Positions 8,065 through 46,459 of a stretch of DNA of 64,000 nt are shown piece after piece. The DNA is taken from assembly GCA_943912335.1 (NCBI GenBank), contig CALTUD010000004.1:74115-138114 (forward strand), in the 5' to 3' direction. Position 1 is the stretch's first letter, and each line of letters begins with the position of its first letter. The position numbers were made by a program, and so were the translations under genes. The stretch comes from an uncultured Acetobacteraceae bacterium (GTDB lineage: Bacteria; Pseudomonadota; Alphaproteobacteria; Acetobacterales; Acetobacteraceae). The notes under the pieces are model-generated. The model saw nothing but the letters and a program-made list of their open reading frames with translations, searched no databases and was not told the origin of the DNA.

Positions 8065-8097
8065 CGTCATGCGATGATGTTATACATAAACACACCT

Positions 8098-25247: not shown

Positions 25248-25919
25248 TCAGGCTTCGGGACGCTCACCGAATCTGTTCCGGTGACCTGTTCCCGGAAGTA
25301 TGAGCAGCACGACCTGCAGAATCACATTCGCGATGGGCAACGTGAGCAGGAGAAGCCACCAGGCGCTCATGTCGCAGTCGTGTAGCCGCCGGGCATGCAC
25401 CGTCAACGTCGGCCAGAACAGAAGCAAGCCGAGAAACAGAAACGGGATGACGGAGTCGGTCGCAGCCGACATGGCGATAGGCTGTTCGGACAGGCTGCAG
25501 AGTCCGAGCGCGCCAGCAAACAATACGCAGAAAAGAGAGATCGGCAGAAACCATCGAAGACCGAAGTCTTTTCGCGAAAGCCGGCCCCGGAGCGATACCA
25601 GCGCCGCGTTCCGCCCGCGCCAAAGCGAACGGATGATGACGAAGCAGGTTGAGACGAGGATCGTCTCCAGCAGGAGGAATACCAGATTGAAAAGGACGGC
25701 GAACGACCCTACGGAGCTGTCATTGCCACCATCGAGTGAGATTCGTCTGACGACGGTCTGCATCAGGCCAACTTCCGGACCTCGAAGCACCGCCGCCGTC
25801 GCCAGAAAGGCCGCCGCAACCATGTAGGCGGCGACCCGTGGTGAACTACCGTGCGAGAGAGACCGCTCCACGCAAGCGGCACGCTCCGCATCTTCCACTG
25901 AAGCGTCGTTCGGCGTCAT
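25248..25919 (-). CDS. DUF805-family inner-membrane protein with an extended N-terminal membrane region
   Basis: C-terminal RRLHDCDMSAWWLLLLTLPIANVILQVVLLILPGT...NRFG matches the DUF805 signature. Lies in a ~1-kb segment of visibly lower GC. Confidence 0.55.
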   Translation of the reverse strand: MTPNDASVEDAERAACVERSLSHGSSPRVAAYMVAAAFLATAAVLRGPEVGLMQTVVRRISLDGGNDSSVGSFAVLFNLVFLLLETILVSTCFVIIRSLWRGRNAALVSLRGRLSRKDFGLRWFLPISLFCVLFAGALGLCSLSEQPIAMSAATDSVIPFLFLGLLLFWPTLTVHARRLHDCDMSAWWLLLLTLPIANVILQVVLLILPGTGHRNRFGERPEA

Positions 25920-29044: not shown

Positions 29045-30121
29045 ATGGGACGGGATCGTGTTTTGAGTGCGGGTGCGGTGAACAGCCTGATCGACGAGCG
29101 GGACTTGACGGACGCCGTGGCGGCCGGCTTCACGGCTGCGATCGACGCTGCGTCGGTCTTTCTTGGCAATACCGCGCCCAATCCGCCGGTCGGCTGTGCC
29201 ATTCTCGACAGGCAGGGCCGTATCCTCGCCACCGGCAGCCATGAGCGCGCCGGCCTGCCTCATGCCGAGGCGGCGGCTCTGACCGTCTTGCGGGACAACG
29301 GGCAATGGGACGCGGCGCACACGCTCGTGGTGACGCTGGAGCCTTGCAACCATCGCGGCCGTACCGGTCCCTGCACCGAAGCCATTCTCCGTAGCCCCGT
29401 GCGGGAGGTCTGGATCGGCTGCTCCGACCCGAATCCGAACGTGTCCGGCCATGGTGCGACGCGTCTGGCGGAGTCAGGGCTCTCGGTACGAACGCTCGAC
29501 GGACATGGCCCGATCGCCCATCGCTGCGCCGCGCTGATCGCGCCGTTCCGGCGTCTCGCGGTCGAAAAGAAGCCCTGGATCACGATCAAGCAGGCGATCG
29601 ACCGCGGCGGCTCCATGACGCCGCCGGCCGGGCAGACCACCTTCACCTCGGAATCCTCCCTGCTGCTGGCGCATCGTCTGCGGCGCGCGACCGACGCGAT
29701 CGTGACCGGCACGGGCACGGTTCTGGCCGACCGGCCCGGCCTCGATGTACGCCGCCTGCCGGACCATCCCGGACGCCGCCGTCTGCTGGTGGTGGTGGGC
29801 AGCCGGAGCCTTCCGTCCGACTGGGTGGCGGCCGCGGAGGCACGGTTCATTCTGCGACGCGTGCCGGCGCCGGAGCTGGTGCCGGCTGTGCTGGCGGAAG
29901 CCGGCGCGATGTGGGCGATGGTGGAGGCCGGACCGGGCCTGCTCGCGTCTCTGGAAAAAGCCGGTTCGTGGAACGACCGGCTGGTGATCACGCGCGGCGC
30001 CGAAGGCGAGGCCGACCGGCTCGCTGTCGATGTCGCGGATGCGCGCGCGGCCTCGCCGCTCCTGCTCCTGCCGGAGCTGACGCGCCGTTTCGAGGAGGGT
30101 GCATGTTCTCTGGAATCATAG
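29045..30121 (+). CDS. ribD: Bifunctional riboflavin biosynthesis deaminase/reductase
   Basis: Zinc deaminase motifs HAEAAAL and LEPCNHRGRTGPC, plus C-terminal reductase domain. The ORF's N-terminal extension overlaps the riboswitch and was trimmed. Confidence 0.85.
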   Translation: MGRDRVLSAGAVNSLIDERDLTDAVAAGFTAAIDAASVFLGNTAPNPPVGCAILDRQGRILATGSHERAGLPHAEAAALTVLRDNGQWDAAHTLVVTLEPCNHRGRTGPCTEAILRSPVREVWIGCSDPNPNVSGHGATRLAESGLSVRTLDGHGPIAHRCAALIAPFRRLAVEKKPWITIKQAIDRGGSMTPPAGQTTFTSESSLLLAHRLRRATDAIVTGTGTVLADRPGLDVRRLPDHPGRRRLLVVVGSRSLPSDWVAAAEARFILRRVPAPELVPAVLAEAGAMWAMVEAGPGLLASLEKAGSWNDRLVITRGAEGEADRLAVDVADARAASPLLLLPELTRRFEEGACSLES

Positions 30122-30708
30122 AGCGGCTCGGCCGGATCCATCGCGTCACGCCGGGCGACGGCACCGTCCAGTTCGACGTGGAGACGGGTTTTCCCGACCT
30201 GTCTCTTGGCGAAAGCATCGCGGTGAACGGCGTCTGTCTCACCGTGACCGCGTTCGACGCGCAAGGGCGCATGTCGGTGTTCGTCAGCCCGGAAACGCTG
30301 CGGGTGACCGCGCTCGGCCGATTGGCAGAAGGGCACAGGGTCAATCTGGAACGCGCCGTCACCCCGTCCACGCGTTTGAGCGGGCATATCGTCCAGGGGC
30401 ATGTGGATGGCGTCGGCCGTCTGGACAGCGTCGAGCCGTCCGGCGAAGCGCGTGTGCTGCGCTTCGTTCTTCCGGCGCGCCTGCGTCGCTACTGCGTGGA
30501 GAAGGGCTCCATCACCCTGGACGGGATCAGCCTGACTCTGAACCGGATCGAGGAGCCCGAGGGCGAAGTCTTCGTCGTTTCCGTCACCATCATTCCGCAT
30601 ACCTGGGACCACACCACGCTGGGCGGTCTCGCCGTCGGCGATCCAATCAACGTGGAGATCGATGTGATCGCCAAATATGTCGAGCAGCTCGCGAGGATTC
30701 CCGCATGA
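30103..30708 (+). CDS. ribE: Riboflavin synthase alpha subunit
   Basis: MFSGIIE...GESIAVNGVCLTV lumazine-binding repeats. Overlaps the ribD stop. Confidence 0.9.
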   Translation: MFSGIIERLGRIHRVTPGDGTVQFDVETGFPDLSLGESIAVNGVCLTVTAFDAQGRMSVFVSPETLRVTALGRLAEGHRVNLERAVTPSTRLSGHIVQGHVDGVGRLDSVEPSGEARVLRFVLPARLRRYCVEKGSITLDGISLTLNRIEEPEGEVFVVSVTIIPHTWDHTTLGGLAVGDPINVEIDVIAKYVEQLARIPA

Positions 30709-31955
30709 CCGACTATCCGGACCGCATCGCGGCCGCGATCTCCGCTCTTCGCGCGGGCCGCATGGTGATCATGACCGATGACGAGGGGCGCGAGAACGAA
30801 GGCGACGTCGTGATGGCGGCGCAGCACGTCACCGCCGACGCCATCAACTTCATGGTGACGCATTGCCGCGGCCTCGTTTGTCTGGCGCTGGAGCCGGAGC
30901 AGGTGGACCGTCTTGGCCTGCCGCAGATGGTGCGCGACAATCGCGCCCCGCGTTCGACCGGCTTCACCGTGTCGATCGAGGCCGCCACCGGGGTCGAGAC
31001 CGGCATCTCCGCACGCGACCGCGCCCGCACCATCGAGGCCGCCGCATCGCCGCATGCGGTGCCGGCCGATATCGTGTCCCCGGGGCATATCTTCCCGCTG
31101 CGCTGCGTGCCCGGCGGCGTTCTAGCCCGCGACGGACATACCGAAGGGTCGGTGGATCTGCTGAAGCTGGCAGGGCTTTTGCCGTCCGCGGTGATCTGCG
31201 AGATCATGAGCGCCGACGGCAGCATGGCGCGCATGGCGGAGCTGGAAGAGTTCGGCGCCAGGCACGATCTGCCGATCGTCACCATTGCCGAACTGATCTC
31301 CTATCTGCGGGATCGGGAAACCGACTCGCCGACCGTGCAGCGCGGCGCCACCACGACGCTGCCGGTGGCGAACAGCGACACCGTGTTCGAGATGCGCGCT
31401 TATGTGGACCGCAATGGCGGCGAACATCTGGCGTTGATCAAGGGCGATCCGTCCGTGGCCGGAACACTGCCGCTGGTGCGTCTGCATTCCGAATGCGTGA
31501 CGGGCGACGTGTTCGGTTCTCTTCGTTGCGATTGCGGCACGCAGCTCCAGGCGGCGACGCAGCGCATCGCGCAGGCCGAGAACGGCATTCTGCTCTATCT
31601 GCGCGGGCATGAAGGCCGCGGCATCGGGCTCGCGAACAAGGTGCGGGCCTATGCCTTGCAGGATGAAGGGCTCGATACGGTGGAAGCGAATCATCGTCTG
31701 GGTTTCGCGGCTGATGCGCGCGACTACTCCGTGGCCGCCGCGATCCTGCGCGATTGCGGCGTCGGGCGTCTGGCGCTGCTGACCAACAACCCGGCCAAGA
31801 TCGCTGCCCTGGAAGGGCATGGCATCACCGTGGCGGAACGCGTGTCGTTGGAGATGCCGCATACCGCGCATAACGACCGCTACATGCGCACCAAGCGCGA
31901 CAGGATGGGCCATGTGCTGGCTGGCGACGAAACCGCCGGGCGCGCTGCGGAATAA
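30705..31955 (+). CDS. ribBA: Bifunctional 3,4-dihydroxy-2-butanone-4-phosphate synthase / GTP cyclohydrolase II
   Basis: DHBP synthase motifs (DDEGRENEGD) and GCH-II Cys cluster (CVTGDVFGSLRCDCG). ATGA overlap with ribE. Confidence 0.9.
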   Translation: MTDYPDRIAAAISALRAGRMVIMTDDEGRENEGDVVMAAQHVTADAINFMVTHCRGLVCLALEPEQVDRLGLPQMVRDNRAPRSTGFTVSIEAATGVETGISARDRARTIEAAASPHAVPADIVSPGHIFPLRCVPGGVLARDGHTEGSVDLLKLAGLLPSAVICEIMSADGSMARMAELEEFGARHDLPIVTIAELISYLRDRETDSPTVQRGATTTLPVANSDTVFEMRAYVDRNGGEHLALIKGDPSVAGTLPLVRLHSECVTGDVFGSLRCDCGTQLQAATQRIAQAENGILLYLRGHEGRGIGLANKVRAYALQDEGLDTVEANHRLGFAADARDYSVAAAILRDCGVGRLALLTNNPAKIAALEGHGITVAERVSLEMPHTAHNDRYMRTKRDRMGHVLAGDETAGRAAE

Positions 31956-31965
31956 GGACGAATCG

Positions 31966-32454
31966 ATGAGCACCAACACGCCCCGCACGAAGCCCGATCT
32001 CCGCTTCGCAACGCCACCGCGTCTCGCCATCGTGGTGAGCCGTTTCAACGAGGACGTCACCGACGGCCTGCGCCGCGGGGCGATCGAATGGCTGGGCGAG
32101 CACGACATCGCCGTGCGCGACGAGGATGTGATCGCGGCGCCCGGCGCCTACGAACTGCCGCTGATCGCGCAGTGCCTGGCCAAGACCGGGCGCTATCGCG
32201 GCGTGATCTGCCTGGGCTGCGTGGTGAAGGGCGACACGGCGCATTTCGAATTCATCAGCCTGGGGACGACGATCGGTCTGATGCAGGCGCAGCTCGCGAC
32301 CGACACGCCGATCGCATTCGGCGTCATCACCACCTACACCGACGCGCAGGCGATCTCTCGTTCGCGCGACGACGAGCACAACAAGGGCCGCGAAGCGGCA
32401 GCGGCGTGCGTGGAAACGATCGCGATCCAGGACCGGATCGCCGCAGGGGCATGA
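31966..32454 (+). CDS. ribH: 6,7-dimethyl-8-ribityllumazine synthase
   Basis: 163 aa, LAIVVSRFNEDVTDGL...GCVVKGDTAHFEF. Confidence 0.9.
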   Translation: MSTNTPRTKPDLRFATPPRLAIVVSRFNEDVTDGLRRGAIEWLGEHDIAVRDEDVIAAPGAYELPLIAQCLAKTGRYRGVICLGCVVKGDTAHFEFISLGTTIGLMQAQLATDTPIAFGVITTYTDAQAISRSRDDEHNKGREAAAACVETIAIQDRIAAGA

Positions 32455-32497
32455 AGACCAGGGCCGGAACGACGACACTCCGGCCCGTCCTCAGCGA

Positions 32498-34117
32498 CTA
32501 GACGTTTGCGCTGCCGGTCGTCCGCGCCGTCAGCGCGCCGAACAGGGCCTTGCCGTCCGGACGACCGAGCCCGGTGCAGGCGTTCCAGACCGGGCCGGCC
32601 TGATAACCGATCTGCGTGTTGGCCGGCTTGTTGTTGCCGCTGGTGATCTCGACCGTCAGCTTCCGGCCGATCTTGATCTGCCCGTAGAGAAAATCGGGCA
32701 GGAAGCCGACCGGAACCGCGGCCTTCTGGTTGATCAGCGCGGTGAGCCCGGCCCAGAGCGGCGCCACGGCGGAGGTGCCGCCGACCACTTCCTTCTTGCC
32801 TCCGACCACCACCAGGTAGCCGCTGCCAGGCGCCGCGTTGCCGGCGACGTCGGGCACGCCGCGCCCGTTGCGCCCGCCATTCACGCTGGGGGGCAGTGTC
32901 ACGGTGTTCTGGAACGCCGGAATGCCGAAAAGGTCGCTGATGCCGCCGCCGGTGCCGCCGCCGCCTTCGAGCGAATCGTTCCAGACCATTTCGGCCGAGA
33001 TCGTACTGCCGGACACGGCGATATGCGTGCCGCCGCAGCCGATCGCCCAGGGAGACGAGGCCGGAAAATCCACATGCGCCATGCCGTCATCGACGCCGTC
33101 GGTGGCGAGGCTGTCTCCGGACGCGACATAGACCGAGATGCCCATCGCCGCCGCGTCCTGCAGCGCGCTGTTCATCGCCGAAACCGCCTGCGCGCTCCAG
33201 GAACTTTCCGGGCCGCCCCAGGAGATCGAGATCACTGAGGGTTTGGTGGTGCCGTCATGCGCCGCCTGCGAGATGGCGTCGGAGAAACCGGCATCGGTGT
33301 TGGGCGCGAAATAAACCGCGATCTCCGCGCCCGGTGCGACACCGCCGGCGACCTGGATGTCGAGCGCCACTTCGCCATCCGCATCCGAGCCGGTCTTGTT
33401 GCGGGCGCCATCGACCGAAACCGCCACCACGCGCGGCGTCTTGAGGCCCATCGCCTTGAACGCGGTCTGATTGTCGGCTGCGGAATAGCCGCCGCCCAAC
33501 TCGATCAGGGCGATGGTCACACCCGTTCCGTCCACACCGGTCGGAAAATCGTAGAGCGTGGCGAGCTTGTTCGGCTCCAGCCCGCCGGGTTGCGCGGCAC
33601 GCGGACGGACGATGCGGGTATGGGCGATGGCGCGGTCGTCCAGCCCCAGCACGGATTCGACGATGCCGTGCAGCGCGTCCGGAAGATGCAGTTCGCCCGC
33701 ATGGCTGCGGAACGTTTCCGTGCCGGACTTGTAGAGTTCGAGCTTGGTGCCGAAGGCGGCCTCGATCGCACGCGGCGTGCCGGACACGCGCACCAGACGG
33801 CGGGCGGCCGAGCTTTCCAGTACGGTCAGCCCGTGCTGGTTGGCATAGTCGGTGAGCGCGCGGATATCGGGCCCGTAGAGCGTTTCGCGCGCATGTGCCA
33901 TCAGCTTGCGCCGCGCGTCGGGGTCGCCGAGCGTGTTCATCTTCGCGAACAAGGCGGTTTCGTCGCGTGGCCGGATGTTCAGGCTTGCCTCGATCACGTG
34001 CGCGTCCGGCACCGAGCCGGTGCAGACCGCATCGCGGGGCAAGGCGCGCGTGCTGCCGACGATGGGGCACAACCCTTTTCCGGGCTGAGCGGAAGCGATC
34101 TTCTGCGTGTCGGTCAT
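32498..34117 (-). CDS. S53 sedolisin/kumamolisin-like serine-carboxyl peptidase with pro-domain
   Basis: Pro-kumamolisin activation-domain-like N-terminus and catalytic region (GGTSAVAPLWAG Ser motif; DGEVALDIQ). No obvious signal peptide from the chosen ATG at 34115-34117; the upstream part of the ORF is Arg-rich frame noise. Confidence 0.75.
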   Translation of the reverse strand: MTDTQKIASAQPGKGLCPIVGSTRALPRDAVCTGSVPDAHVIEASLNIRPRDETALFAKMNTLGDPDARRKLMAHARETLYGPDIRALTDYANQHGLTVLESSAARRLVRVSGTPRAIEAAFGTKLELYKSGTETFRSHAGELHLPDALHGIVESVLGLDDRAIAHTRIVRPRAAQPGGLEPNKLATLYDFPTGVDGTGVTIALIELGGGYSAADNQTAFKAMGLKTPRVVAVSVDGARNKTGSDADGEVALDIQVAGGVAPGAEIAVYFAPNTDAGFSDAISQAAHDGTTKPSVISISWGGPESSWSAQAVSAMNSALQDAAAMGISVYVASGDSLATDGVDDGMAHVDFPASSPWAIGCGGTHIAVSGSTISAEMVWNDSLEGGGGTGGGISDLFGIPAFQNTVTLPPSVNGGRNGRGVPDVAGNAAPGSGYLVVVGGKKEVVGGTSAVAPLWAGLTALINQKAAVPVGFLPDFLYGQIKIGRKLTVEITSGNNKPANTQIGYQAGPVWNACTGLGRPDGKALFGALTARTTGSANV

Positions 34118-34713
34118 GTCTCGCCTCGACGTTCTGGATTCGTTCGATCGCCAGCATGACTGTCTCCAGCCGCCCCGTCCAGCAATCCCGGCAGCAACGC
34201 GCGGGCTGGGCGGGTGGTGCCCGGGCGTGCCGTTTCCAGCAGGATCATCCCGTCCATCAGCGCCAGAATGGTTTCCGCCGTGCCGTTGCCGCGCCAGGCG
34301 GGCAGGAGCCGGGAGTCGAGCCAGCCGATCCAGTTCTCCACCACGAAGGACGCCAACTGGTCGTAGGGCGCTTCGCCGCGTGCGCCTGCGGACACCACCT
34401 CCGTCCAGAGTCGCATCACCGGCGCCATGTCCGGTTTCTCCGATTGTTCGAGCAGGAACGTCACCAGCTTCCCGGGGGTGACGGGCGGCATGGCGTCCAC
34501 GCCACTCAGGCGCGACTGCAGGCCGGTGTTGATCCGGTGCAGCGTTTCGCGAACCAGCGCGTCCTTGCTGCCGAAATAATACAGCAGCATCCGGCCGGAG
34601 GTGCCGAGTTGCGACGCGAGACCGCGCAGGGCGAAGGCGCCCAGACCCTGGGCCAGGACGATGGGGCTGATCCGGTCGCACAGGGCGTCACGACGGTCGG
34701 GAAGGGTATCCAT
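34114..34713 (-). CDS. TetR-family transcriptional regulator
   Basis: N-terminal HTH (ISPIVLAQGLGAFALRGLASQLGTSGRMLLYYFGSKDALV). Its stop overlaps the peptidase ATG by 4 nt. Confidence 0.8.
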   Translation of the reverse strand: MDTLPDRRDALCDRISPIVLAQGLGAFALRGLASQLGTSGRMLLYYFGSKDALVRETLHRINTGLQSRLSGVDAMPPVTPGKLVTFLLEQSEKPDMAPVMRLWTEVVSAGARGEAPYDQLASFVVENWIGWLDSRLLPAWRGNGTAETILALMDGMILLETARPGTTRPARALLPGLLDGAAGDSHAGDRTNPERRGET

Positions 34714-34783
34714 GCCGATTTCTGTAGCACCCGTTACATCATCCAGGCTATGTAACGCATGTTTCATAACGGAGTCGAACGCC

Positions 34784-35170
34784 ATGCCGACGAAAACGCA
34801 GGTGCCGATGCTGGTCGGGATCGCGATCCTGTTCTGGGCCATCGCGACCGCGTCGATACGCTGGGTGCCTGGGTCGCTGACCGACCCGTTGCGTGGTTCG
34901 GTGCTGTTCGCGGTGAGTTTGCCAATCTGCTGGGGCTGCATCCGTTTCGTGCGCCGGTCGGCACGCTTGAGGCCGGAACAGATCCTGGCCGCGACGGTCC
35001 TGGTGGTCGGTGTCGCGAACCTGATCGACGCCGTCGCATTGCGCTGGGCGCCGTTTCTCTACGGTGCGGACGAGCGGGTGCTGCGCCTCGGTGCGTCCTG
35101 GCTGCTCTGGGGCTACGGCGTGACCCTGGTGATCGCGCTTGCGATGCGCCGCGGCTTGCCTGCGCGCTGA
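34784..35170 (+). CDS. Small integral-membrane protein (4 predicted TM helices), unknown function
   Basis: 128 aa, hydrophobic segments. Divergent from the TetR gene. Confidence 0.45.
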   Translation: MPTKTQVPMLVGIAILFWAIATASIRWVPGSLTDPLRGSVLFAVSLPICWGCIRFVRRSARLRPEQILAATVLVVGVANLIDAVALRWAPFLYGADERVLRLGASWLLWGYGVTLVIALAMRRGLPAR

Positions 35171-35595
35171 GAGCGGTTTCGTTCCGCGCCGTTCTCCGCG
35201 ACGATGCGGGTTTCGGCGGCTCCGGATGGCCGGGGGACACGCGCCGGGTGTGCGAGCATCAGACGGACTCGTCTGGGGGCCTATTCTTGCGTGCCGAGGC
35301 GACGATTTCGGTCGCGCATGGCGGTCTTCCCGGCGCGGTCCTCCGGGCGGCATGCCGCAGCAGCCGACGAGAAATAACGCGTGAAGACGAAGAATTTTCA
35401 CATCGATGCATCATGGCGGGTGACGCTACGGCGAGCAGGTCCGAGCGCTGTGTGAGCCGGTCCGGGCGCTCCCTGGCGGGGCTAAGACGGTTCACCGCTC
35501 GTCTGGACGATCGTGTTGATGTGTTTCAGCCTGCGCTCCTGTCGCAGCCGGCGAACAGAACCGGCGCGACACGGAGCGAAACGGAGGCGCCCGCC

Positions 35596-36792
35596 ATGCT
35601 GCATGATAAAATCGTCGTCGACCCGTCGAGAAGCGTGACGGCATACACCCACGCCGCTCTGGCGGATGTCACCCGGACGACCGGGCTTGGGGTTTCCGCC
35701 GCCCGTCACGCGGTGGAGGCTTTCGCCGCAACGCCAGCCGCGGCGCGCGAAACGACCGCCACGCCAGCCGCCGCGCATGCCTCGGCGGTTCCCGCCACGC
35801 AGGCCGCCGACTACGTCCTGGTGGCACAGGCGCAACAGGCAGCCCTTTCGCCCATCGTTTCGGAATTCCTCAACGGCGCCATCAGCGAATATGTGCTGGG
35901 CGGCGTGCCGGACGGCATGAAGCCGTTTCTGGTGAACGGACAGCAACTTACACTGTCCGACGACCTCAACGGCGCCTTCGCGCATACCTGGATCACCGCG
36001 GAACACCAGGTGCTGATCACCTTCTCCGGCACCACGCGCGGCGAGAACATCCTGGTCGATCCCGCAGCCAGCGTCGGCGGCCTGCTCAGCGATCTGACCA
36101 TTCTCCAGCAGAAGACCTCGTCTGCGCAGCTGGAGTCGCTCGGTTTCGCCAGGCAGGTTCTTGCCGAGGCGGCGAAGCAGGGCTTCGCGTCCAGTCAGGT
36201 CTTCGTCACCGGCCACTCGCTGGGCGGTATCGAGGCGGAATACGTGGCGCAGCAGACCGGCCTCGCCGGGATCGGCTTCGAGCCCACCGGCATCCGTCCG
36301 GATGCGACCGCGATCGGCACCGGCGGCAATTTCGTCAGCGTCGTCACAGATGGCGACCCGGTCGGCAATTACGGCTCCGACATCAAGGGCGAGCAGCCCT
36401 TCGCGCCCCGTTTCGTCGCGCAGGGCGGCCAGTTGCCGCATTACGGCACCGTGCTGCAGATCGGCGCCGCCTCCGATCAGGCCGCCTTGAGCAAGGTCGC
36501 CGCGCTGGTGGCGCCCGCTTTCTCCGGCGACAGCGCCACCTTCTCCCCGATCGACGCGCTGTTGCACCCGTTGAGCGTGGCGGCAGGTCTGGCCGGAGCC
36601 GCGGCCTTGATCGCGGAGTTTCATCTGCCGGCGGCGGAATACACGGATCTGGGCGTCACTCCGACCGGCGGTTTCCTGTCGCAGCTCCCGGACCGTCTCG
36701 GCGTCTCCCACGGCGCGGTGCTGCCAGTGGGCAACGACACGATCGCCCAGTTGCAGGGCTATATCGCAACACACGCCAACGTCGGCGTTTGA
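35596..36792 (+). CDS. Class-3 lipase-like alpha/beta hydrolase
   Basis: GHSLGG nucleophile elbow, about 398 aa, no signal peptide seen. Confidence 0.65.
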   Translation: MLHDKIVVDPSRSVTAYTHAALADVTRTTGLGVSAARHAVEAFAATPAAARETTATPAAAHASAVPATQAADYVLVAQAQQAALSPIVSEFLNGAISEYVLGGVPDGMKPFLVNGQQLTLSDDLNGAFAHTWITAEHQVLITFSGTTRGENILVDPAASVGGLLSDLTILQQKTSSAQLESLGFARQVLAEAAKQGFASSQVFVTGHSLGGIEAEYVAQQTGLAGIGFEPTGIRPDATAIGTGGNFVSVVTDGDPVGNYGSDIKGEQPFAPRFVAQGGQLPHYGTVLQIGAASDQAALSKVAALVAPAFSGDSATFSPIDALLHPLSVAAGLAGAAALIAEFHLPAAEYTDLGVTPTGGFLSQLPDRLGVSHGAVLPVGNDTIAQLQGYIATHANVGV

Positions 36793-36832
36793 GCGACGCG
36801 TGGGGGGAGGCGCGTCCTTCCCCCACGATCGG

Positions 36833-37471
36833 TCAGCGTTTCTGTCTGGCGGGCTGCGCCCTGTCGAACGCGTCCAGCGCCAGGGCATTCCGCTCAATCG
36901 CCAGAAGCGTCGGCGCCACGGTTAGATCGGCACCGAACACGCGCGACGCGGCCATGTGGCTGGCCAGACAGAGATCGGCGATGGTCGGCGTGTCGCCGTG
37001 GCAGAAGCGCCCGGTTTCCGCTTCCGCCGAAAGCCGGGCTTCGCCGATGCGGAGACCTTCGCCGAGCCAATGATGTAGCCAGCCGGTCTCGCCGGCCGGA
37101 TCGATGTCGAGGCGCTCGCGCAGGAAGCGCCGGACGCGCGGCACGATCAATGGATGATGGTCGGTCGCGAACAGGCCGGCGATGCCGCGTACGCGTGCCC
37201 TTCCGGCCGGATCCGAAGGCAGCAGAGGCGGTTCCGGATGGGTTTCCTCCAGATATTCCAGAATTGCCAGCGACTGGGTGAGGCGTGTGCCGTCCTCGAA
37301 CAGCACGGTCGGCACGACGCCCTGCGGGTTGAGAGCGCGGAACTCGGGTTGGTTCTGTTCGCCGCCATCGAGATCGACGAAGATTTCCCGGAACGGGAGC
37401 TGTTTGAGGTTGAGCGCAATTCGTACCCTGTAGGCGGCGGATGAGCGCCAGAAGCCGTGCATCTCGATCAT
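36833..37471 (-). CDS. maiA: Maleylacetoacetate isomerase / zeta-class glutathione S-transferase
   Basis: GST N- and C-domains with zeta-class N-terminus (LYGFWRSSAAYRVRIALNLK). Confidence 0.8.
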   Translation of the reverse strand: MIEMHGFWRSSAAYRVRIALNLKQLPFREIFVDLDGGEQNQPEFRALNPQGVVPTVLFEDGTRLTQSLAILEYLEETHPEPPLLPSDPAGRARVRGIAGLFATDHHPLIVPRVRRFLRERLDIDPAGETGWLHHWLGEGLRIGEARLSAEAETGRFCHGDTPTIADLCLASHMAASRVFGADLTVAPTLLAIERNALALDAFDRAQPARQKR

Positions 37472-37725
37472 GGTGTTTGTCTTCCTGTCGGATCAACGCA
37501 CGGACGGGAGGAAGGGTGGAACCGTGCCGGTACGCGGCCCCGACTAAAGCTTTGTTTAGAAGAACCGGCTCCTGCGCATTTTCCCGCTCGCCGCATGGAC
37601 CCGGGCGATGATGCGCCTCTCGGCATGGCCGCTCTTCGCCGGATCGCCTTGACGGAGCAGGGTGGCTCCTGAACGCTGCCGCCGAACGACCGAACGATGG
37701 CGGCCACGCCAGGGGAGATACAGGG

Positions 37726-40026
<2,301 letters not shown>

Positions 40027-40058
40027 TGTGATACGTTGACGCTACCATCTGCATGATG

Positions 40059-40096
40059 GTTTGTTTCATCCGCGAACGACAGCGGATGAAACAAAC
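40059..40096 (+). repeat. Perfect 15-bp inverted repeat (GTTTGTTTCATCCGC, 8-nt loop, GCGGATGAAACAAAC) between the maeB stop and the ssuC ATG
   Basis: Read directly. The 3' arm ends 1 nt before the ATG at 40097 and would contain the Shine-Dalgarno region. Confidence 0.6.
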
Positions 40097-40966
40097 ATGC
40101 TCGACAGGGTCTCCAGCCCGGCGGCGGTGATTGGCCGGCCTGTGTCGCGCCCGGCGCCGGTTCGGTCGGCGAGACGCAGCCCGGCGGGGGTGCGGAAGAC
40201 CGCCCGTCCGCTGCCCTTCCGCCGTTTCTGGTCCATCCTGCTGATCCTGGCGGTTTGGCAGGCGGCGTCCTCCGCAGGGCTGGTCTCGCCGGAAACCCTC
40301 GCCTCGCCGCTGCGCATTGCCCGCACCGCGTTCGACCTCACCCGCAGCGGTGTTCTGCCGCAGAATCTGCTCGTCTCCCTCGGCCGCGCCGGCAGCGGAC
40401 TGGCCATCGCCATCGGCGGCGGCATCGCTCTGGCCTTGGTCGCTGGCCTGTCGCGTATCGGCGAGGATGTGGTCGATGCGCCGATGCAGATGCTCCGCAC
40501 CCTGCCGGCTCTGGCTCTGGTGCCGCTGTTTATTCTCTGGTTCGGCATCGGCGAGACGCCCAAGATCGCCCTGGTGGCGCTGGGCGCGCTGATCCCGGTC
40601 TATCTCAATCTGTTCAAGGGCATCCGCGCGATCGACCCGAAACTGCTGGAGATGGGCCGCACGCTCGGCCTGTCCCGTTCGGCCGTGATCCGCAACATCG
40701 TCCTGCCCGGGGCATTGCCCGATCTGCTCACGGGCCTACGCTTTTCCGTCGGCATTTCCTGGCTGATGCTGGTGGTCGCCGAGCAGGTGAACGCGTCCAC
40801 GGGCATCGGCCATATGATGATGGACGCGCAGGATTTCCTCCGCACCGACATCATCTTGGTCGGGCTGCTGGTCTATGCGCTGCTCGGTCTGCTCAGCGAT
40901 CTCGCGGTGCGGATGCTGGAACGGCGCCTGCTGCGCTGGCGCCCGGTGGCGGGAGGCGTACGATGA
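40097..40966 (+). CDS. ssuC: Aliphatic sulfonate/nitrate/taurine-family ABC transporter permease
   Basis: Six-TM ABC permease with EAA-like loop. Genomic context with ssuB/ssuD/ssuA. A TTG alternative start at 40061 was not used. Confidence 0.75.
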   Translation: MLDRVSSPAAVIGRPVSRPAPVRSARRSPAGVRKTARPLPFRRFWSILLILAVWQAASSAGLVSPETLASPLRIARTAFDLTRSGVLPQNLLVSLGRAGSGLAIAIGGGIALALVAGLSRIGEDVVDAPMQMLRTLPALALVPLFILWFGIGETPKIALVALGALIPVYLNLFKGIRAIDPKLLEMGRTLGLSRSAVIRNIVLPGALPDLLTGLRFSVGISWLMLVVAEQVNASTGIGHMMMDAQDFLRTDIILVGLLVYALLGLLSDLAVRMLERRLLRWRPVAGGVR

Positions 40967-41664
40967 GCGGCGGCGTTTTCGTCGAGGGCCTCAGCCGCGC
41001 CTTCGGCGGCAATCGCGTCCTGGACGGGCTCGATCTGCAGATCCGTCCCGGCGAGTTCGTCGCCCTTTTGGGCCGCTCCGGCTCCGGCAAGACCACGCTT
41101 CTGCGCACTCTGGCCGGACTCGATCCTGTGGAGGAGGGCACCGTCTCCGTGCCGGAACAGGTCGCGGTGGTGTTCCAGGAGAGTCGACTGCTGCCGTGGA
41201 AGCGGGTGCGCGACAATGTGATGCTGGGCCTGGACGGCACGGATGCACGCGCCCGCGCCGAAGCGGCCTTGGGCGAAGTCGGTTTATCGCATCGGCTGGA
41301 CGCCTGGCCGCTTACCCTCTCGGGCGGCGAGGCTCAGCGCGTCGGCATCGCGCGCGCTCTGGTCCGTGCGCCAGAGTTTCTGATGCTGGACGAGCCCTTT
41401 GCCAGTCTCGACGCGCTCACCCGCCTACGCATGCACGCGATGGTGGAGCGCCTTTGGCGCGCCCATGGCTGCGCCGTACTGTTGGTGACGCATGATGTGG
41501 ACGAGGCGCTCACGCTCGGCGATCGCGCCGTGGTGCTGGATCGCGGCCGGATCAGAACCGTGCTGCCGTTGGAGATGGAGCGCCCACGTCGACACGACGC
41601 CGCTGATTTCGCGCGAGGGCGTCGCGTACTGCTCGACGCGCTGGACGTGGGCGAGGCGGTTTAG
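40963..41664 (+). CDS. ssuB: Aliphatic sulfonate-family ABC transporter ATP-binding protein
   Basis: Walker A GRSGSGKTTLL, signature LSGGEAQRVGIARAL, Walker B LMLDEPFASLD. ATGA overlap with ssuC. Confidence 0.85.
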   Translation: MSGGVFVEGLSRAFGGNRVLDGLDLQIRPGEFVALLGRSGSGKTTLLRTLAGLDPVEEGTVSVPEQVAVVFQESRLLPWKRVRDNVMLGLDGTDARARAEAALGEVGLSHRLDAWPLTLSGGEAQRVGIARALVRAPEFLMLDEPFASLDALTRLRMHAMVERLWRAHGCAVLLVTHDVDEALTLGDRAVVLDRGRIRTVLPLEMERPRRHDAADFARGRRVLLDALDVGEAV

Positions 41665-41786
41665 CGCCGGTCGGACCGGCGCGCGCGCACCGGAATCGCC
41701 TGCGGCCTCGGCCGCGCCGCTAGAACGAGCGGGATCATCGCCAGCAGGGCGGCGGCAACGAACGCGACCTGTTCCAACTGCTGCAT
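41661..41786 (-). CDS. Possible small (41-aa) membrane peptide ORF, stop-to-stop overlap with ssuB
   Basis: Hand translation gives MQQLEQVAFVAAALLAMIPLVLAARPRPQAIPVRARRSDRR. GGGAAG lies about 5 nt upstream of the ATG. Below the size cut-off of the ORF track, so very tentative. Confidence 0.2.
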   Translation of the reverse strand: MQQLEQVAFVAAALLAMIPLVLAARPRPQAIPVRARRSDRR

Positions 41787-41789
41787 GAT

Positions 41790-44700
41790 CGAATCTTCCC
41801 CATCTCGGAACACCTGCCGAACAGATTGCCCTAACGCGCCAGCCGATCAAGGGTTGTTTTCGGCATGAGACCGTTACGCAATACAGATGCGGACGGTTTA
41901 TCGTTACGGCTCATATGCGGGATTGCGAAGGGCGGGTGGATGATGCATCCGCCGTTCACTGTAATCGGCAAATCCGGCATGACCTTGGACCTCGAAACGT
42001 GATAGAGGGACTTTCAGCAGCGAGATTATTCTGGTTCACTGTCTGGCGCGACGTGAAAATATCCAGCCTCGCGTAATCTAGTCAAGACTGTAGATACTGC
42101 TTTAGCTCCAGGATCCGTTTTGTTCAGGTCCCGCTTTGCTTTGATATAAGCCACAATCTTCATCAGAATAAGTCTTTCGCTATTCGTGTTTACCTCTTGT
42201 CTATACTGCCTCATGCTAGTGTCTAGCATAAACCTCAGAAATAAAGAGCGCTTCTCAGTCTTGCTCAAAATCGCATGGGCAACATCGCCCCAGTTTTTGG
42301 GCTTAGATCTCAAAATCATGGCAAAATTGATGTACTGCTCAAAGCCTGACAATAATAGGTTCTGAGACATATATACAAAGACTTCGGCCAGTTTCTTTGA
42401 TCCCAGGACTTCAGTTGATTGATTTACTATTGAGGTAGGTATTACCGAAGCAACAAGTCCTGCTCGGTGCTGGGCATCAAATTCTATATCTGGATCATAC
42501 CTAATGCGATTTACGAAATTCATTTCGTTCCACGTAAATCTTTTCTGCTCGGCAATCAGAGGAGAAAATATAAAACCTATTCTCACGACAATCTTGGAAG
42601 CTTCTACGATTGCTTGGATAGCATTGACCTTCAGGCTACCTTCGACGTCGACAGCGTTGTTAATTGCGGTCATTAGTACTGATCTACTAAGTGTGACACT
42701 CTTTTCCCGTTCCTTGAAGTCCATTATAATAGTTGACTGTAATTCTGTCTTGCGTTCGGCTTCAATTGACCTCTTTAATTTGTCAATCTCGGGTATTGCA
42801 TCAGGACCTTGTTCGAGACTCTCAGTAATATCTTTCCAAATGGCTGCCTCGACCTCTTCAGAGTAAGTCCATTCTAACCTATCATACGGGTTTAAATCCC
42901 TAATATTATACTGATTATAAAATTCATCGATGGCGTCATTCAAACCTTTTGTCAGATTCTTCACAAGCTCTGTATTGTCTGCCGACAGACCACTAATAAC
43001 CTCGATAAGCCCTTCAACTTGCATGTGATCGTTATTTGCAAGGAATTCTTTCAAATCCTTCGGTCGATTTGCTACATATCTGCCTAGGAGATAGCTATAG
43101 AATAGCCTATAGCGAAATATATACACTGCATTGGACTTTTGAAGAACGCGACTGGCTGCTAAATCATTTAAGAGCGCAGACCAATCAAAGTTTATCAGAG
43201 TTCTAGACATGTATTTTGAGCAGAAAACTGCCCATTCAGTTTCGGTGAAGCTGACCATATCTTTTTTGTACAATGAATTTACAAATGAACTCAAAACATC
43301 AAGTTTGTTGTCTACGTTAAAGGAATCTCTGTAAGCATCGCCCGGCCTCCGTAACAGCTCTCTGATATATTTATCTATTATCTGAAGCCTACTAAGCGGA
43401 GCAAAGTCGCCTTCTCTATGAAGAATTGACAAGTACATTATTACATTTGTTGGAGTTAAAGGAATGCAAAGTTGCAGTAGGTCATTATATACCTTTTCTA
43501 CAACCCCCGATATATAGTCTTGATCGGCTGAGCCTGACATCTGGCGAGCTAATGTTCTAATGCCAGATCTATTTATGTTGCTGAGACGAAGAGAAATATA
43601 ATCTGCCTCATATGCATCGTCGTCATCTTGCACAGAAAAACTTTCAGTTTTAGTAAGTAATATAATTCTCTTAAACCGCTTTATCCCACGAATCTCTTTG
43701 AGAAGCCTCTCGTGATTAACACCGTCAAAGCCATCTAGTATGATGACTTCTTCTTTTATAGAGTCTGTAGAATTATAGCCAAGTTCCGATAGCAAGCGCT
43801 TTTGATAATTTGGAAGACTGTTTGCCTCCCTAAATATAGTTAAATGGCCAGATGTAGATAGTTGATTGGCTAAACGGCGACCTAATGTTGTCAATCCATA
43901 TTCGTGTGGAGCATGAATGACAAAGGACTTGTCGGAGACGACGATATCGTCGACGTTTAATGCATCAGGTTCTGATTCAAAGTCAGTTTCCAGCAGGGCA
44001 TTTGATGCAATTAGTCGAGGTTCGACGTAAAGAAGCTTATTCGCATAACCAACAAAAAGGTTTTGCGCCCACGGCTGTGGCTCAGAGTATATATCAACAC
44101 TCTCTTTTTCTATATCTTTGACAATACTCTCTACTGCACTATTCTCACCGTTAGATTTACGTGCTGGCATTTTTCGCAGCAGGTCTATCAGTTCGGAATG
44201 ATCTTGGAGGTTGCCGCTTTCATCCTTTTTGATACAGTAGAAGATTGGTCGGACTTTGTACTTACGCGAGAAACTGCGTCGCATTGTCAGTGATACCGGT
44301 TCCTCATCAGATCGGCCAATGAATGCAAAATGTCGATCATCGGAAGCTAGGTCACGTAAAGTCTCTTCCAGCCCTCTAGTAAGGAAAGGATCCTTGAAGC
44401 CGAAGCCAACTACAATAAGTCTTTGTGTACGAAAGAGGCCCTGTAGGAAGTTTACATTCTCTCTTACACCATAAAATCTGTTATAATCCTTTCCGGTAAA
44501 TATCATCTCCTCCGGAGCTGATGGAACCCCATGCCAATGCAGTATTGGTGGCGCCGAAACACTCAGGCTTTGCCCCTGAGTCCATCTGGATAGCTCGAAC
44601 CTCTCAGAACTACGGTGGGACTGGGGTAAGCTACTGAAGTAACGTACGTAAGCATTTGATAGGCCAGGATCATAGTTGAGAGTTATAAAACCTTGAAATG

Positions 44701-45250
44701 GAATTGCCATCAGTGATTCGTGCGCAACTGTACAGAGATCTGGCTTATTGAAGTAACTCGACAAAAGTGTACGAAACTTGTCAGTAAGTAGTGCCTCTTC
44801 CAGGCTGTCAGCAACATCCAACGGATCGTCTGCCATTTGTTGGAGTAGTGATGCAGCATCGTTCGAGTCTATGGCTCCGCTATCTTTTGCATGACTTATA
44901 ATGTTGTGAAGAATACCACCCCAAGTTGGTATCTGGGGAGCACTAGTGCCAGCGCCGGTAAATGCTAGAGCGTTATTAGACTGAATTGCCGCACATGCAT
45001 CTTGAAAGGCCGAACAATTGCCGGGGTATATATCCTCGCGCAACAGGCGCTTCAGGGCTTCATCCATGACGCTATCCCATACAGAAGTAGCTAAATAGGT
45101 TTGCTGAATGAGCAAGGGCGGCAACTCTCGCCTCCCGGCTCCACGTGATTTGTGACAATAGCATCATAACGATTCGCCATCTACGTGGCACGCGGGAAGC
45201 GAGCGATCGCCCTGCGTCAAAGCATATACAAAAGCGTCCCCCAACCCCTA
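41790..45250. other. Compositionally foreign AT-rich segment (about 35-40% G+C by eye against 65-70% flanks) inserted between the convergent 3' ends of ssuCB and ssuD; carries one large gene. No integrase, tRNA or flanking direct repeats seen.
   Basis: Abrupt GC drop is obvious in the raw sequence from ~42.0 to 45.12 kb, with transitional flanks. Codon usage of the enclosed ORF is AT-biased, unlike all neighbours. Confidence 0.75.
42026..45124 (-). CDS. Large (1032-aa) SIR2-like (sirtuin/NADase, SIR2_2-type) domain protein with extended C-terminal region; candidate single-gene anti-phage defence protein (DSR / SIR2-STAND-like)
   Basis: N-terminal SIR2 motifs: LAFTGAGTSAPQIPTWGGIL (GAG.S..P.W), FITLNYDPGL (TTNYD-type with catalytic Asn), ILHWHGV (HG with catalytic His), LIVVGFGFKDPFL. 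Downstream: FVIHAPHEYGLTTLGRRLA, IILDGFDGV, RIILLTKTE, then about 500 aa of helical sequence. TTG start at 45122-45124 with GGGAGG SD; the first ATG is at 45067. Confidence 0.8.
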   Translation of the reverse strand: MPPLLIQQTYLATSVWDSVMDEALKRLLREDIYPGNCSAFQDACAAIQSNNALAFTGAGTSAPQIPTWGGILHNIISHAKDSGAIDSNDAASLLQQMADDPLDVADSLEEALLTDKFRTLLSSYFNKPDLCTVAHESLMAIPFQGFITLNYDPGLSNAYVRYFSSLPQSHRSSERFELSRWTQGQSLSVSAPPILHWHGVPSAPEEMIFTGKDYNRFYGVRENVNFLQGLFRTQRLIVVGFGFKDPFLTRGLEETLRDLASDDRHFAFIGRSDEEPVSLTMRRSFSRKYKVRPIFYCIKKDESGNLQDHSELIDLLRKMPARKSNGENSAVESIVKDIEKESVDIYSEPQPWAQNLFVGYANKLLYVEPRLIASNALLETDFESEPDALNVDDIVVSDKSFVIHAPHEYGLTTLGRRLANQLSTSGHLTIFREANSLPNYQKRLLSELGYNSTDSIKEEVIILDGFDGVNHERLLKEIRGIKRFKRIILLTKTESFSVQDDDDAYEADYISLRLSNINRSGIRTLARQMSGSADQDYISGVVEKVYNDLLQLCIPLTPTNVIMYLSILHREGDFAPLSRLQIIDKYIRELLRRPGDAYRDSFNVDNKLDVLSSFVNSLYKKDMVSFTETEWAVFCSKYMSRTLINFDWSALLNDLAASRVLQKSNAVYIFRYRLFYSYLLGRYVANRPKDLKEFLANNDHMQVEGLIEVISGLSADNTELVKNLTKGLNDAIDEFYNQYNIRDLNPYDRLEWTYSEEVEAAIWKDITESLEQGPDAIPEIDKLKRSIEAERKTELQSTIIMDFKEREKSVTLSRSVLMTAINNAVDVEGSLKVNAIQAIVEASKIVVRIGFIFSPLIAEQKRFTWNEMNFVNRIRYDPDIEFDAQHRAGLVASVIPTSIVNQSTEVLGSKKLAEVFVYMSQNLLLSGFEQYINFAMILRSKPKNWGDVAHAILSKTEKRSLFLRFMLDTSMRQYRQEVNTNSERLILMKIVAYIKAKRDLNKTDPGAKAVSTVLTRLREAGYFHVAPDSEPE

Positions 45251-46459
45251 CCCCCGCCCCTCATGCGTCGGCGCCCCCACGTTCGCGATCATCTCCCCGA
45301 ACGGCCCGCCATGGTGCGCCGGCCCATAGCTGTTCCCCGTGGTCGCCCGCAGAGGCAGCTTGGGGAACACCAGCTCGGCGAAGCGGTAGCATTCCTCCAG
45401 ATGCGGGTAGCCGCTCAGGATGAAGCGGTCGATGCCCAGCGCCATGTATTCCTTCATGCGCGCAGCGACCTCGTCCGGGTTGCCCACGAGAGCGGTTCCG
45501 GCGCCGCCACGCACGAGACCGACCCCGGCCCAGAGATTGGGCGACACCACCAGATTGTCGCGGCCGCCTTTGTGCAGTTCGGCCATCCGTTGCTGGCCCA
45601 CGCTGTCGAATTTCGCGAACGCGGCCTGGGCCTTGGCGATGTCGGCCTCGTCCAGATGCCGGATCAGCGAGTCCGCCGCCGCCCAGGCTTCTTCCGAGGT
45701 TTCGCGCACGATCACATGCAGGCGGATGCCGAAGCTGAGCGTGCGCCCGCGCGCGGCGGCCAGTGCCCGCACGGCGTCGATCTTCTCTTTCACCGCCGCG
45801 GGCGGCTCGCCCCAGGTCAGGTAGACATCCACATGCTCGGCCGCGACTTCCTGGCCGACGCCGGACGAGCCGCCGAAATACAAAGGCGGGTAGGGGCGCT
45901 GCGCCGGCGGAAACAGCAGCTTGCCGCCCTTCGAGCGTAGGTGCCGCCCCTCGAAATCCACGGTGTCGCCGCGCATCAGCCGGCGCCACACCTCCAGATA
46001 TTCGGCGGTGGCCTCGTAGCGCGACGCGTGGTCGAGGAACACGCCGTCTCCGGCCAACTCGGTCGGGTCGCCGCCCGTCACCACGTTCACCAGCAGGCGC
46101 CCGTTGCTCAGCCGGTCGAACGTCGCCGCCATGCGCGCGGTCATGGACGGCTCGCTCAGTCCGGGACGCACCGCGACCAGGAAGCGCACGCGCTGCGTCA
46201 GCGGGATCATCGACGACGCTACGACCCAACTGTCCTCGCAGCTTTTCCCGGTCGGCAACAGCATGCCGAAATAGCCGAGTTCATCGGCGGCGCGGGCGAT
46301 CTGGCTCAGATAGTTCAGCGTCACATGGCGCGCGCCGATCTGCGAGCCGAGATAACGCCCGTCGCCATGGGTGGGCAGGAACCAGAGCACGTCGCATTCC
46401 GTGGCGCCGCCGGAGGAGGCGAGGGGCCTGTGATCCACGGGAAGGATGGTGTCGGGCAT
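45248..46459 (-). CDS. ssuD: FMNH2-dependent alkanesulfonate monooxygenase (LLM-class flavin-dependent oxidoreductase)
   Basis: Luciferase-like monooxygenase motifs. Start at Met-31 of the ORF (46457-46459). Adjacent to ssuA/ssuCB. Confidence 0.85.

Follow-up and report, generated by a model that had tools for sequence, protein, structure and literature searches.

Two kinds of bacterial protein that contain a STAND module, the Avs5-type SIR2-STAND proteins and DS-8, are each supported by experiment as anti-phage. Avs5 (AVAST type 5, represented by EfAvs5 and PaAvs5) has an N-terminal SIR2 domain fused to a STAND NTPase within one protein. In EfAvs5, the trigger is a phage protein and filament formation activates the SIR2 NADase; ATP is contacted by K379 and is bound, not hydrolysed, and Walker mutants lose defence (PMC11897194). 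DS-8 (DefensePredictor system 8, WP_032203427.1) is a single-protein metallophosphatase-NACHT from Escherichia coli that guards this bacterium against phage; its effector residues and its NTPase residues are both indispensable, as D52A, N84A, and K375A each inactivate it (PMC13092281). Here, we analyzed a stretch of 64,000 nucleotides, called the window below, from an uncultured Acetobacteraceae bacterium (GenBank assembly GCA_943912335.1, contig CALTUD010000004.1, positions 74,115 to 138,114), and found that it carries a gene joining a SIR2 domain to a DS-8-type (nSTAND4) chassis. In the literature searched, which was incomplete, we found no published description of this combination and no paper using the term nSTAND4. 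We consider it fairly probable that the product is a single-protein, NLR-like abortive-infection NADase of the SIR2-STAND class, and a defence NADase, as first proposed in an earlier note on this DNA, is the best reading.

The gene lies on the minus strand, and the open reading frame (ORF) reported there, 42026 to 45124, was confirmed by the ORF list and the translation: it is intact and comprises 1,032 codons counted from a TTG. At the local base composition, the probability of 1,032 stop-free codons arising by chance is about 3e-29. The likely start is nevertheless the ATG at 45067, giving a coding sequence of 1,013 residues (42026 to 45067, minus strand, with the stop codon at 42026 to 42028), since this ATG is the start in the database gene call and in all homologues, and a public protein of 1,013 residues (P0001) is 100% identical to this form. 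Because GGGAGG, a Shine-Dalgarno-like sequence, stands 6 nt upstream of the TTG at 45124, either start could be used; the TTG would add 19 codons at the N terminus (45068 to 45124, minus strand), while the N termini of the homologues favour the ATG. Residues are numbered on the 1,013-residue form unless the 1,032-codon ORF is named.

Residues 1 to 300 (44168 to 45067, minus strand) constitute a SIR2_2 effector domain of the NADase type. The SIR2 assignment of the earlier note was borne out by the Pfam profile SIR2_2 (PF13289), which covered the protein over profile positions 3 to 141 of 141 (score, 60 bits; cut-off, 24.5; E=3.5e-16). The four SIR2 motifs that it had listed with their catalytic residues, LAFTGAGTSAPQIPTWGG, ITLNYD, ILHWHGV, and LIVVGFGFKDPF, are all present in the translation and conserved across homologues. 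Indeed, among 23 aligned SIR2-headed homologues, D133 is invariant and T129, N131, H177, H179, G180, G221, F222, F224, D226, P227, and F228 are at least 90% conserved, in line with a GFGFxDPF strand that is at least 90% conserved in the family. N131 (44675 to 44677, minus strand) and H179 (44531 to 44533, minus strand) align with the TTNYD and MHG motifs of ThsA and are the putative catalytic residues. The nearest folds to the SIR2 domain are those of ThsA, KomC, AVAST5, and FAM118B; in the PDB deposits, ThsA and KomC are described as NAD+ hydrolase or NADase, and AVAST5 and FAM118B as helical or filament assemblies. When the family profile was run against PDB sequences, human FAM118B, a SIR2-like, filament-forming protein, was recovered with an E value of about 1e-15, as strong as the matches to bacterial ThsA.

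The remainder of the protein was modelled with AlphaFold2 from a family alignment of 25 sequences (mean pLDDT, 79.7), and domain boundaries were taken from predicted structures. A poorly conserved linker of low confidence (residues ~301 to 335; 44063 to 44167, minus strand), disordered in the model with pLDDT below 50 at residues 305 to 330 and gappy and variable in the alignment, separates the SIR2 domain from an alpha/beta core resembling a nucleotide-binding domain (NBD; residues ~336 to 500; 43568 to 44062, minus strand). This core is preceded by an invariant YxEP motif and is predicted to have the layout of a P-loop NTPase, with a strand at 381 to 386, a loop, a helix at 392 to 405, and strand-helix units at 409 to 414, 440 to 445, 467 to 473, and 490 to 495. 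The strand VIILDGFD (residues 441 to 448; 43724 to 43747, minus strand), in which D445 is invariant, resembles a Walker B motif. Next in the model come helical bundles assigned to helical domain 1 (HD1), a winged-helix domain (WHD), and helical domain 2 (HD2) (residues ~501 to 800; 42668 to 43567, minus strand), the winged helix having its beta-hairpin at residues 642 to 651 and the Pfam nSTAND_NTPase4 signature falling at residues 608 to 661. The long C terminus (residues ~801 to 1013; 42029 to 42667, minus strand) is all-helical apart from one beta-hairpin and is presumed to be a sensor or autoinhibitory domain.

The Pfam profile nSTAND4/nSTAND_NTPase4 (PF24406) scored 22.7 bits on the winged-helix region of the window protein, slightly under the gathering cut-off of 27, and matched 24 of the 25 family members at E<=0.1 (best, 2.8e-9), many of which carry a precomputed PF24406 match. 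When the model was compared to the PDB with Foldseek, the top match was EfAvs5 (9jap_A; E=3.4e-12), a SIR2-STAND protein, followed by DSR2 chains, NOD2, NLRP3, NLRC4, NLRP1, ThsA, and SAMD9. The predicted architecture is therefore SIR2, NBD, HD1, WHD, HD2, and a helical C-terminal domain of ~210 residues. The C-terminal 750 residues, initially described as unrecognised, thus have to be reinterpreted: by the Pfam matches across the family, the model, and Foldseek, residues ~336 to 800 form a STAND/NLR-type NTPase module of the nSTAND4 kind, and a specific relative is missing only for the last ~210 residues. This module places the protein in the SIR2-STAND (Avs-type) class, which had been listed only as one alternative among others.

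Within this class, the window protein shares with Avs5 the fusion of an N-terminal SIR2 domain to a STAND NTPase but differs from it in three respects. First, the module of Avs5 is nSTAND3 (PF20720), whereas that of the window protein is nSTAND4-like and gives no PF20720 match. Second, Avs5 has and needs a GxxxxGK[ST] motif, where the window protein reads GLT. Third, Avs5 proteins end in TPR, Sel1, or PPR repeats, whereas the window protein showed no repeats. Furthermore, no sequence match to Avs5 was seen beyond the SIR2 domain, and the family profile run against PDB sequences missed 9jap and 9nc9. ThsA (Thoeris) matches only in its SIR2 part. Unlike ThsA and KomC, the window protein has no SLOG domain and neither a ThsB/TIR partner nor KomA/B partners (no TIR-encoding thsB adjoins the gene, which has an ssuD-like gene and an ABC ATPase gene for neighbours), and its activation presumably comes from the fused STAND module and not from a small-molecule signal. 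With bacterial NACHT proteins and animal NLRs it has in common the NBD-HD1-WHD-HD2 fold and the modular arrangement, with the effector at the N terminus and the sensor at the C terminus. However, the NACHT profile PF05729 does not match at E<=1, the Walker A lysine is absent, and the Koonin-Aravind NACHT signature D[GAS]hDE that follows Walker B (10.1101/2022.07.19.500537) is replaced by DGFDG, or by LILDNF.. in the family consensus. The protein is therefore not a NACHT protein in the strict sense.

DSR1 and DSR2, to which the gene had first been likened, are also single proteins of ~1,000 residues with an N-terminal SIR2 domain, but the C terminus here is a STAND NTPase module and not the non-NTPase phage-sensing region ascribed to them. 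Neither Dsr1 in NCBIfam nor any DSR model in PADLOC matched the window protein. On the fold evidence, namely a P-loop-type core followed by NLR-like HD and WHD regions at residues 336 to 800, we dropped the DSR-type reading.

The relatives of the gene connect it with DS-8. A word-indexed search covering 5.8 billion proteins returned 29 relatives at 33 to 46% identity, with full-length homologues in this range. In two of the proteins found (P0028 and P0029), a calcineurin-like metallophosphatase replaces the SIR2 domain while the C-terminal two-thirds are shared, and a metallophosphatase also heads the sister protein P0050, among others. An exhaustive HMM search over 1.84 billion cluster representatives yielded about 20 full-length SIR2-headed clusters (at 50% identity), about 25 metallophosphatase-headed clusters at 600 to 850 bits, and a further tier at about 200 bits with a metallophosphatase head or, in P0159, a trypsin-like protease head; 475 representatives, fragments counted, were found at E<=1e-30. 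P0159 combines the lysine-less chassis described below with a trypsin-like serine protease head recognised by Pfam, which represents a third effector type, and P0166 and P0167 (899 to 925 residues) are similar to it in size. Effectors of these classes have been catalogued among bacterial NACHT proteins (10.1101/2022.07.19.500537), and swapping SIR2, metallophosphatase, and protease heads on a constant chassis is the pattern typically expected of STAND conflict systems. The intact ORF, the 33 to 46% identity to homologues, and the retention of the catalytic residues together argue for purifying selection on the gene.

The nearest relatives without a SIR2 domain bear a metallophosphatase head of the DS-8 type. 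In agreement with this, the NCBIfam profile DS8_antiphage (NF053861) matched the window protein with 40.6 bits over 89 residues, positions 602 to 690 of the 1,032-codon ORF (residues 583 to 671), the match falling at the same position numbers in the profile and in the ORF. In P0021, the match extends over residues 567 to 950, corresponding to profile positions 605 to 986, and the metallophosphatase relatives score 130 to 205 bits. All family members stay far below the equivalog cut-off of 790 bits. By these profile matches, we regard the chassis of the window protein as remotely homologous to that of the experimentally validated DS-8. The two proteins have a homologous STAND module and C terminus and a size of ~1,000 residues, but they differ in their effector (a metallophosphatase in DS-8, SIR2 here) and in that 40.6 bits are reached against the 790-bit cut-off; moreover, DS-8 depends on K375, whereas the clade of the window protein is devoid of the Walker A lysine.

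The loop occupying the place of the Walker A motif, APHEYGLT (residues 386 to 393; 43889 to 43912, minus strand), lies in the model between the strand at 381 to 386 and the helix at 392 to 405. It fits [GA]xxxxG-x-[ST] at a strand-helix junction but deviates from the canonical GxxxxGK[ST], with L392 at the position of the lysine. Column for column, it aligns with the G.[KR]E.GK[TS] of more distant metallophosphatase-nSTAND4 proteins (P0247 to P0255, P0261, P0267, P0268, P0272, P0278, and P0280), and several other subclades show SGLS/T or CGLS at these columns. In an hmmalign census of 203 relatives, the residue at the lysine position was leucine in 114, glycine in 30, alanine in 24, lysine in 14, serine in 11, and another residue in 10. 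By contrast with this variable position, the P-loop glycine, the following serine or threonine, and the Walker B aspartate (D445) are near-invariant among the same relatives. In the winged helix, lysine-bearing and lysine-less members alike keep the basic residue of the F[RK][FY] motif; a concomitant loss of the winged-helix histidine and the lysine was considered and found uninformative, as F[RK][FY] occurs in both groups. No conservation was seen at the sensor-1 position in the family alignment.

The absence of the Walker A lysine, with GLT in place of GK[ST], makes ATP hydrolysis by the window protein unlikely, and nucleotide binding, if any, would be non-canonical. Binding is left possible by the retained P-loop glycine and threonine, the Walker B aspartate, and the basic residue of the winged helix. 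As no E. coli (DS-8) member was present in the profile search with the distant metallophosphatase relatives, the alignment of K375 of DS-8 with L392 is indirect, and we infer the equivalence via the GK[ST]-bearing intermediates and not via the DS-8 sequence itself. Inactive STAND domains in conflict systems have already been noted in computational surveys (cited in 10.1101/2022.07.19.500537).

To see how the gene is distributed, we scanned 185,579 species genomes and recovered 16 loci: 12 encode full-length SIR2-headed proteins, three, from Sphingomonadales, encode metallophosphatase-headed ones, and one, from Mucilaginibacter, encodes an Avs5-like protein. All but two are alphaproteobacterial, the exceptions being a gammaproteobacterial metagenome-assembled genome (MAG; L002) and Mucilaginibacter (Bacteroidota). 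The SIR2 form is thus rare and almost wholly alphaproteobacterial. Neighbours vary from locus to locus, including an integrase (L003), an S24-HTH (CI-like) repressor (L008), a reverse transcriptase (L009), and lepA (L013), and none is conserved, in support of the gene being an autonomous single-gene unit.

Each of the 16 loci, like the window, shows a GC trough of ~3 kb whose extent is that of the ORF. Across the 15 chassis loci, the gene has a GC content of 0.36 to 0.49 against 0.53 to 0.72 in the flanks, and GC at third codon positions (GC3) of 0.35 to 0.56. The Avs5-like gene of Mucilaginibacter (L016, 9968 to 13483; a SIR2-nSTAND3 protein of 1,171 residues that matches nSTAND3 and shares only the SIR2 head with the window protein) has a GC content of 0.28 to 0.30 against flanks of 0.41 to 0.44, so that the compositional pattern is not confined to the nSTAND4 chassis. 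The AT-rich codon usage had been taken as a possible sign of one recent acquisition. It is no evidence of one, since AT-richness is a family-wide trait and the proteins are only 33 to 46% identical to each other, so that a single recent transfer does not account for it. Possible causes are a fast turnover of genes drawn from an AT-rich pool, or selection acting, for example, through xenogeneic silencing.

Taking Avs5, DS-8, and bacterial NACHT proteins as models, we propose that in an uninfected cell the C-terminal and STAND parts would keep the protein as an inactive monomer or dimer. This block would be lifted once the C-terminal helical domain senses a phage protein or another infection cue, and the STAND module would then drive oligomerisation or filament formation, bringing the SIR2 domains together and activating them by proximity, as in EfAvs5 filaments (PMC11897194). 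Active SIR2 would hydrolyse NAD+ and thereby starve the infected cell and the phage. The gene itself was acquired horizontally, in the form of a self-contained cassette of ~3.4 kb.

Several observations weigh against an abortive-infection NADase. The Walker A lysine is absent from the window protein and from 189 of the 203 relatives, GK[ST] being kept in 14 distant ones. Since K375A abolishes defence by DS-8 (PMC13092281), and since the equivalent lysine is also needed in EfAvs5 and in bNACHT01, where K115 is required for defence (10.1101/2022.07.19.500537), the window protein cannot use the canonical switch in the way known from them. Nor is the gene part of a defence island in the window, where it adjoins metabolic and housekeeping genes. 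A PADLOC scan of the protein returned SIR2-domain models only (ThsA and LmuA), and because PADLOC and NCBIfam together gave only SIR2-level or weak DS-8 matches, a named system cannot be assigned. Finally, three of the homologous copies, in an Asaia MAG (L011, 10001 to 13062), an alphaproteobacterial MAG (L012, 1556 to 4551), and Methylobacterium sp. P31 (L014, 10001 to 13007), hold 26 to 39 stops in their best single frame; they are either frameshifted pseudogenes or the product of assembly indel errors.

Among the alternatives, the one that survives best, although rather unlikely, is a defence protein whose SIR2 head is no bulk depleter of NAD+. The head could instead ADP-ribosylate or deacylate a target, or make or degrade an NAD-derived signal, comparable to the nucleotide degradation proposed for the metallophosphatase head of DS-8.

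We judge it unlikely that the gene lacks a current function and is carried along as a passenger in decay or under silencing, that is, an AT-rich gene with a dead, lysine-less switch that is silent in a GC-rich host. Such a passenger would fit the loss of the lysine, the GC3 of 0.40 against 0.85 in the host, the three stop-rich loci, and the short-read metagenome contigs, which never cross the 5' two-thirds of the gene. However, the loss is common to ~190 diverged relatives that maintain an intact ORF of ~1,000 residues together with the Walker B aspartate, the P-loop glycine and serine or threonine, and the SIR2 catalytic residues, and the window ORF is itself intact over a length hardly compatible with chance. 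A loss shared by so many otherwise conserved relatives points to a function that has changed and is under selection, and not to decay.

It appears improbable that the role of the gene is non-immune, such as that of an NAD+ regulator responding to stress or metabolism or of a selfish addiction module. The metabolic rather than defence-related neighbours in the window would suit it, but the patchy, rare, horizontally transferred distribution and the foreign composition would not. Moreover, the trypsin-like and metallophosphatase head swaps and the homology to the validated DS-8 fit conflict systems, and some homologues adjoin an integrase, a reverse transcriptase, or a CI-like repressor. Finally, a protein of the DSR1/DSR2 type, in which the SIR2 head is followed by a long non-NTPase repeat sensor binding a phage structural protein, is highly improbable: the similar size and head and the many DSR2 chains returned by Foldseek (E ~1e-8) speak for it, but the DSR2 matches reach a whole-chain TM of only ~0.22, the good superposition is restricted to a 273-residue partial chain (TMt 0.71) of about the length of the SIR2 head, and the missing DSR profile matches and the NLR-like region at 336 to 800 add to this.

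Returning to the SIR2-STAND NADase, the lysine census and the shared base composition can be read together, and we do so tentatively, as we think this combination doubtful. The lysine-less nSTAND4 clade, which comprises SIR2-, metallophosphatase-, and trypsin-headed proteins with at least ~190 diverged members, may be a natural lineage of NLR-like immune receptors that abandoned the canonical ATP switch, and its AT-richness would be maintained by selection. The gating of oligomerisation and of effector activation may rely solely on a ligand bound to the C-terminal helical domain, or on a non-canonical ligand in the remodelled P-loop pocket with its conserved glutamate. As for the composition, a mechanism such as xenogeneic silencing, and not recent transfer, may keep a lethal NADase quiet until it is needed. 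If the clade defends cells, it would allow one to ask, in a naturally occurring case, whether switching in an NLR-like receptor requires canonical nucleotide binding. It would also widen the defence repertoire known from the Alphaproteobacteria, a group in which phages and defences have received little study. Should the proteins be inactive, the gene is an ordinary acquired one.

The base composition also delimits the insertion. The gene has a GC content of 0.42 and a GC3 of 0.40, compared to a GC content of 0.667 in the rest of the window and a GC3 of ~0.85 in neighbouring genes. GC drops at 41800 to 41900 and recovers at 45200 to 45250, at the end of the ssuD-like gene. These bounds, together with the end of synteny with Acetobacteraceae bacterium KSS8, define a foreign segment of ~3.4 kb (about 41860 to 45250) consisting of the gene and short flanks: a 3' flank at 41860 to 42025, with a GC content of 0.54 to 0.56, and an upstream intergenic segment at 45125 to 45247 (minus strand), in which GC reaches the level of the host at about 45200 to 45250. 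The flanking genes, maeB, an ABC transporter, the ssuD-like gene, and ftsK, belong to the native core chromosome. Accordingly, the compositionally foreign context that had been described applies to this segment and not to its surroundings, while a stand-alone, horizontally acquired SIR2_2 protein with intact catalytic asparagine and histidine is supported.

MaeB encoded in the window shares 97% identity with its KSS8 counterpart and 86 to 87% with that of Lichenicola, which places the host among the alphaproteobacterial Acetobacteraceae. Synteny with KSS8, at 82 to 88% nucleotide identity, runs from 29306 to 41859 of the window (position 14170 of the KSS8 locus, L027), ~165 bp short of the stop codon of the gene. 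Past 41859, KSS8 has an M20 peptidase gene, secB, and other genes absent from the window, and no SIR2 gene at this position. As KSS8 also diverges here, the site is a rearrangement breakpoint rather than a clean empty one. Direct or inverted repeats that would convincingly flank the segment were not found, nor were a target-site duplication or a terminal inverted repeat; there was no integrase among the neighbouring genes scanned, the only tRNA is 18 kb away, and no second copy of the gene exists within the window.

Short-read metagenome contigs from at least five ENA samples (L019 to L026 and L028 to L032) are 99.97 to 100% identical to the window, nine out of 10 of them at 100%. Those that reach the gene from the left stop at 42229 (twice), 42276, 43012, and 43025, and those on the right start at 45251, 45257, and 45666, two independent assemblies breaking at most 7 bp from the GC boundary. 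Low coverage, or a presence/absence or allelic polymorphism, could account for these breaks. An empty site was not found in the same population, as every metagenome contig that reaches the site carries the 3' end of the gene.

Two short ORFs called in metagenome annotations, of 49 codons (41831 to 41980, minus strand; mostly within the 3' flank) and 41 codons (41661 to 41786, minus strand), lie between the gene and the ABC ATPase gene. They have no counterpart in the homologous loci and were ruled out as partner genes, being unconserved, and the neighbours of the homologues share nothing. Upstream of the gene, there is one sigma-70-like match, GTGCCA-17-TATGAT (45191 to 45163, minus strand), which is a match to the consensus only. 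A short inverted repeat, CCACGT...ACGTGG (within 45125 to 45200, minus strand), was seen by eye to flank the -10-like element TATGAT and may be due to chance. The other genes of the window are ordinary chromosomal ones and include a riboflavin operon (by synteny), a TonB receptor, a glpD-like gene, an efflux system, and an MmyB-type regulator. Milder GC dips (~0.60), in which nothing defence-related was seen, coincide with a TonB-dependent receptor gene (8074 to 10254) and a DUF805 gene (25248 to 25919).

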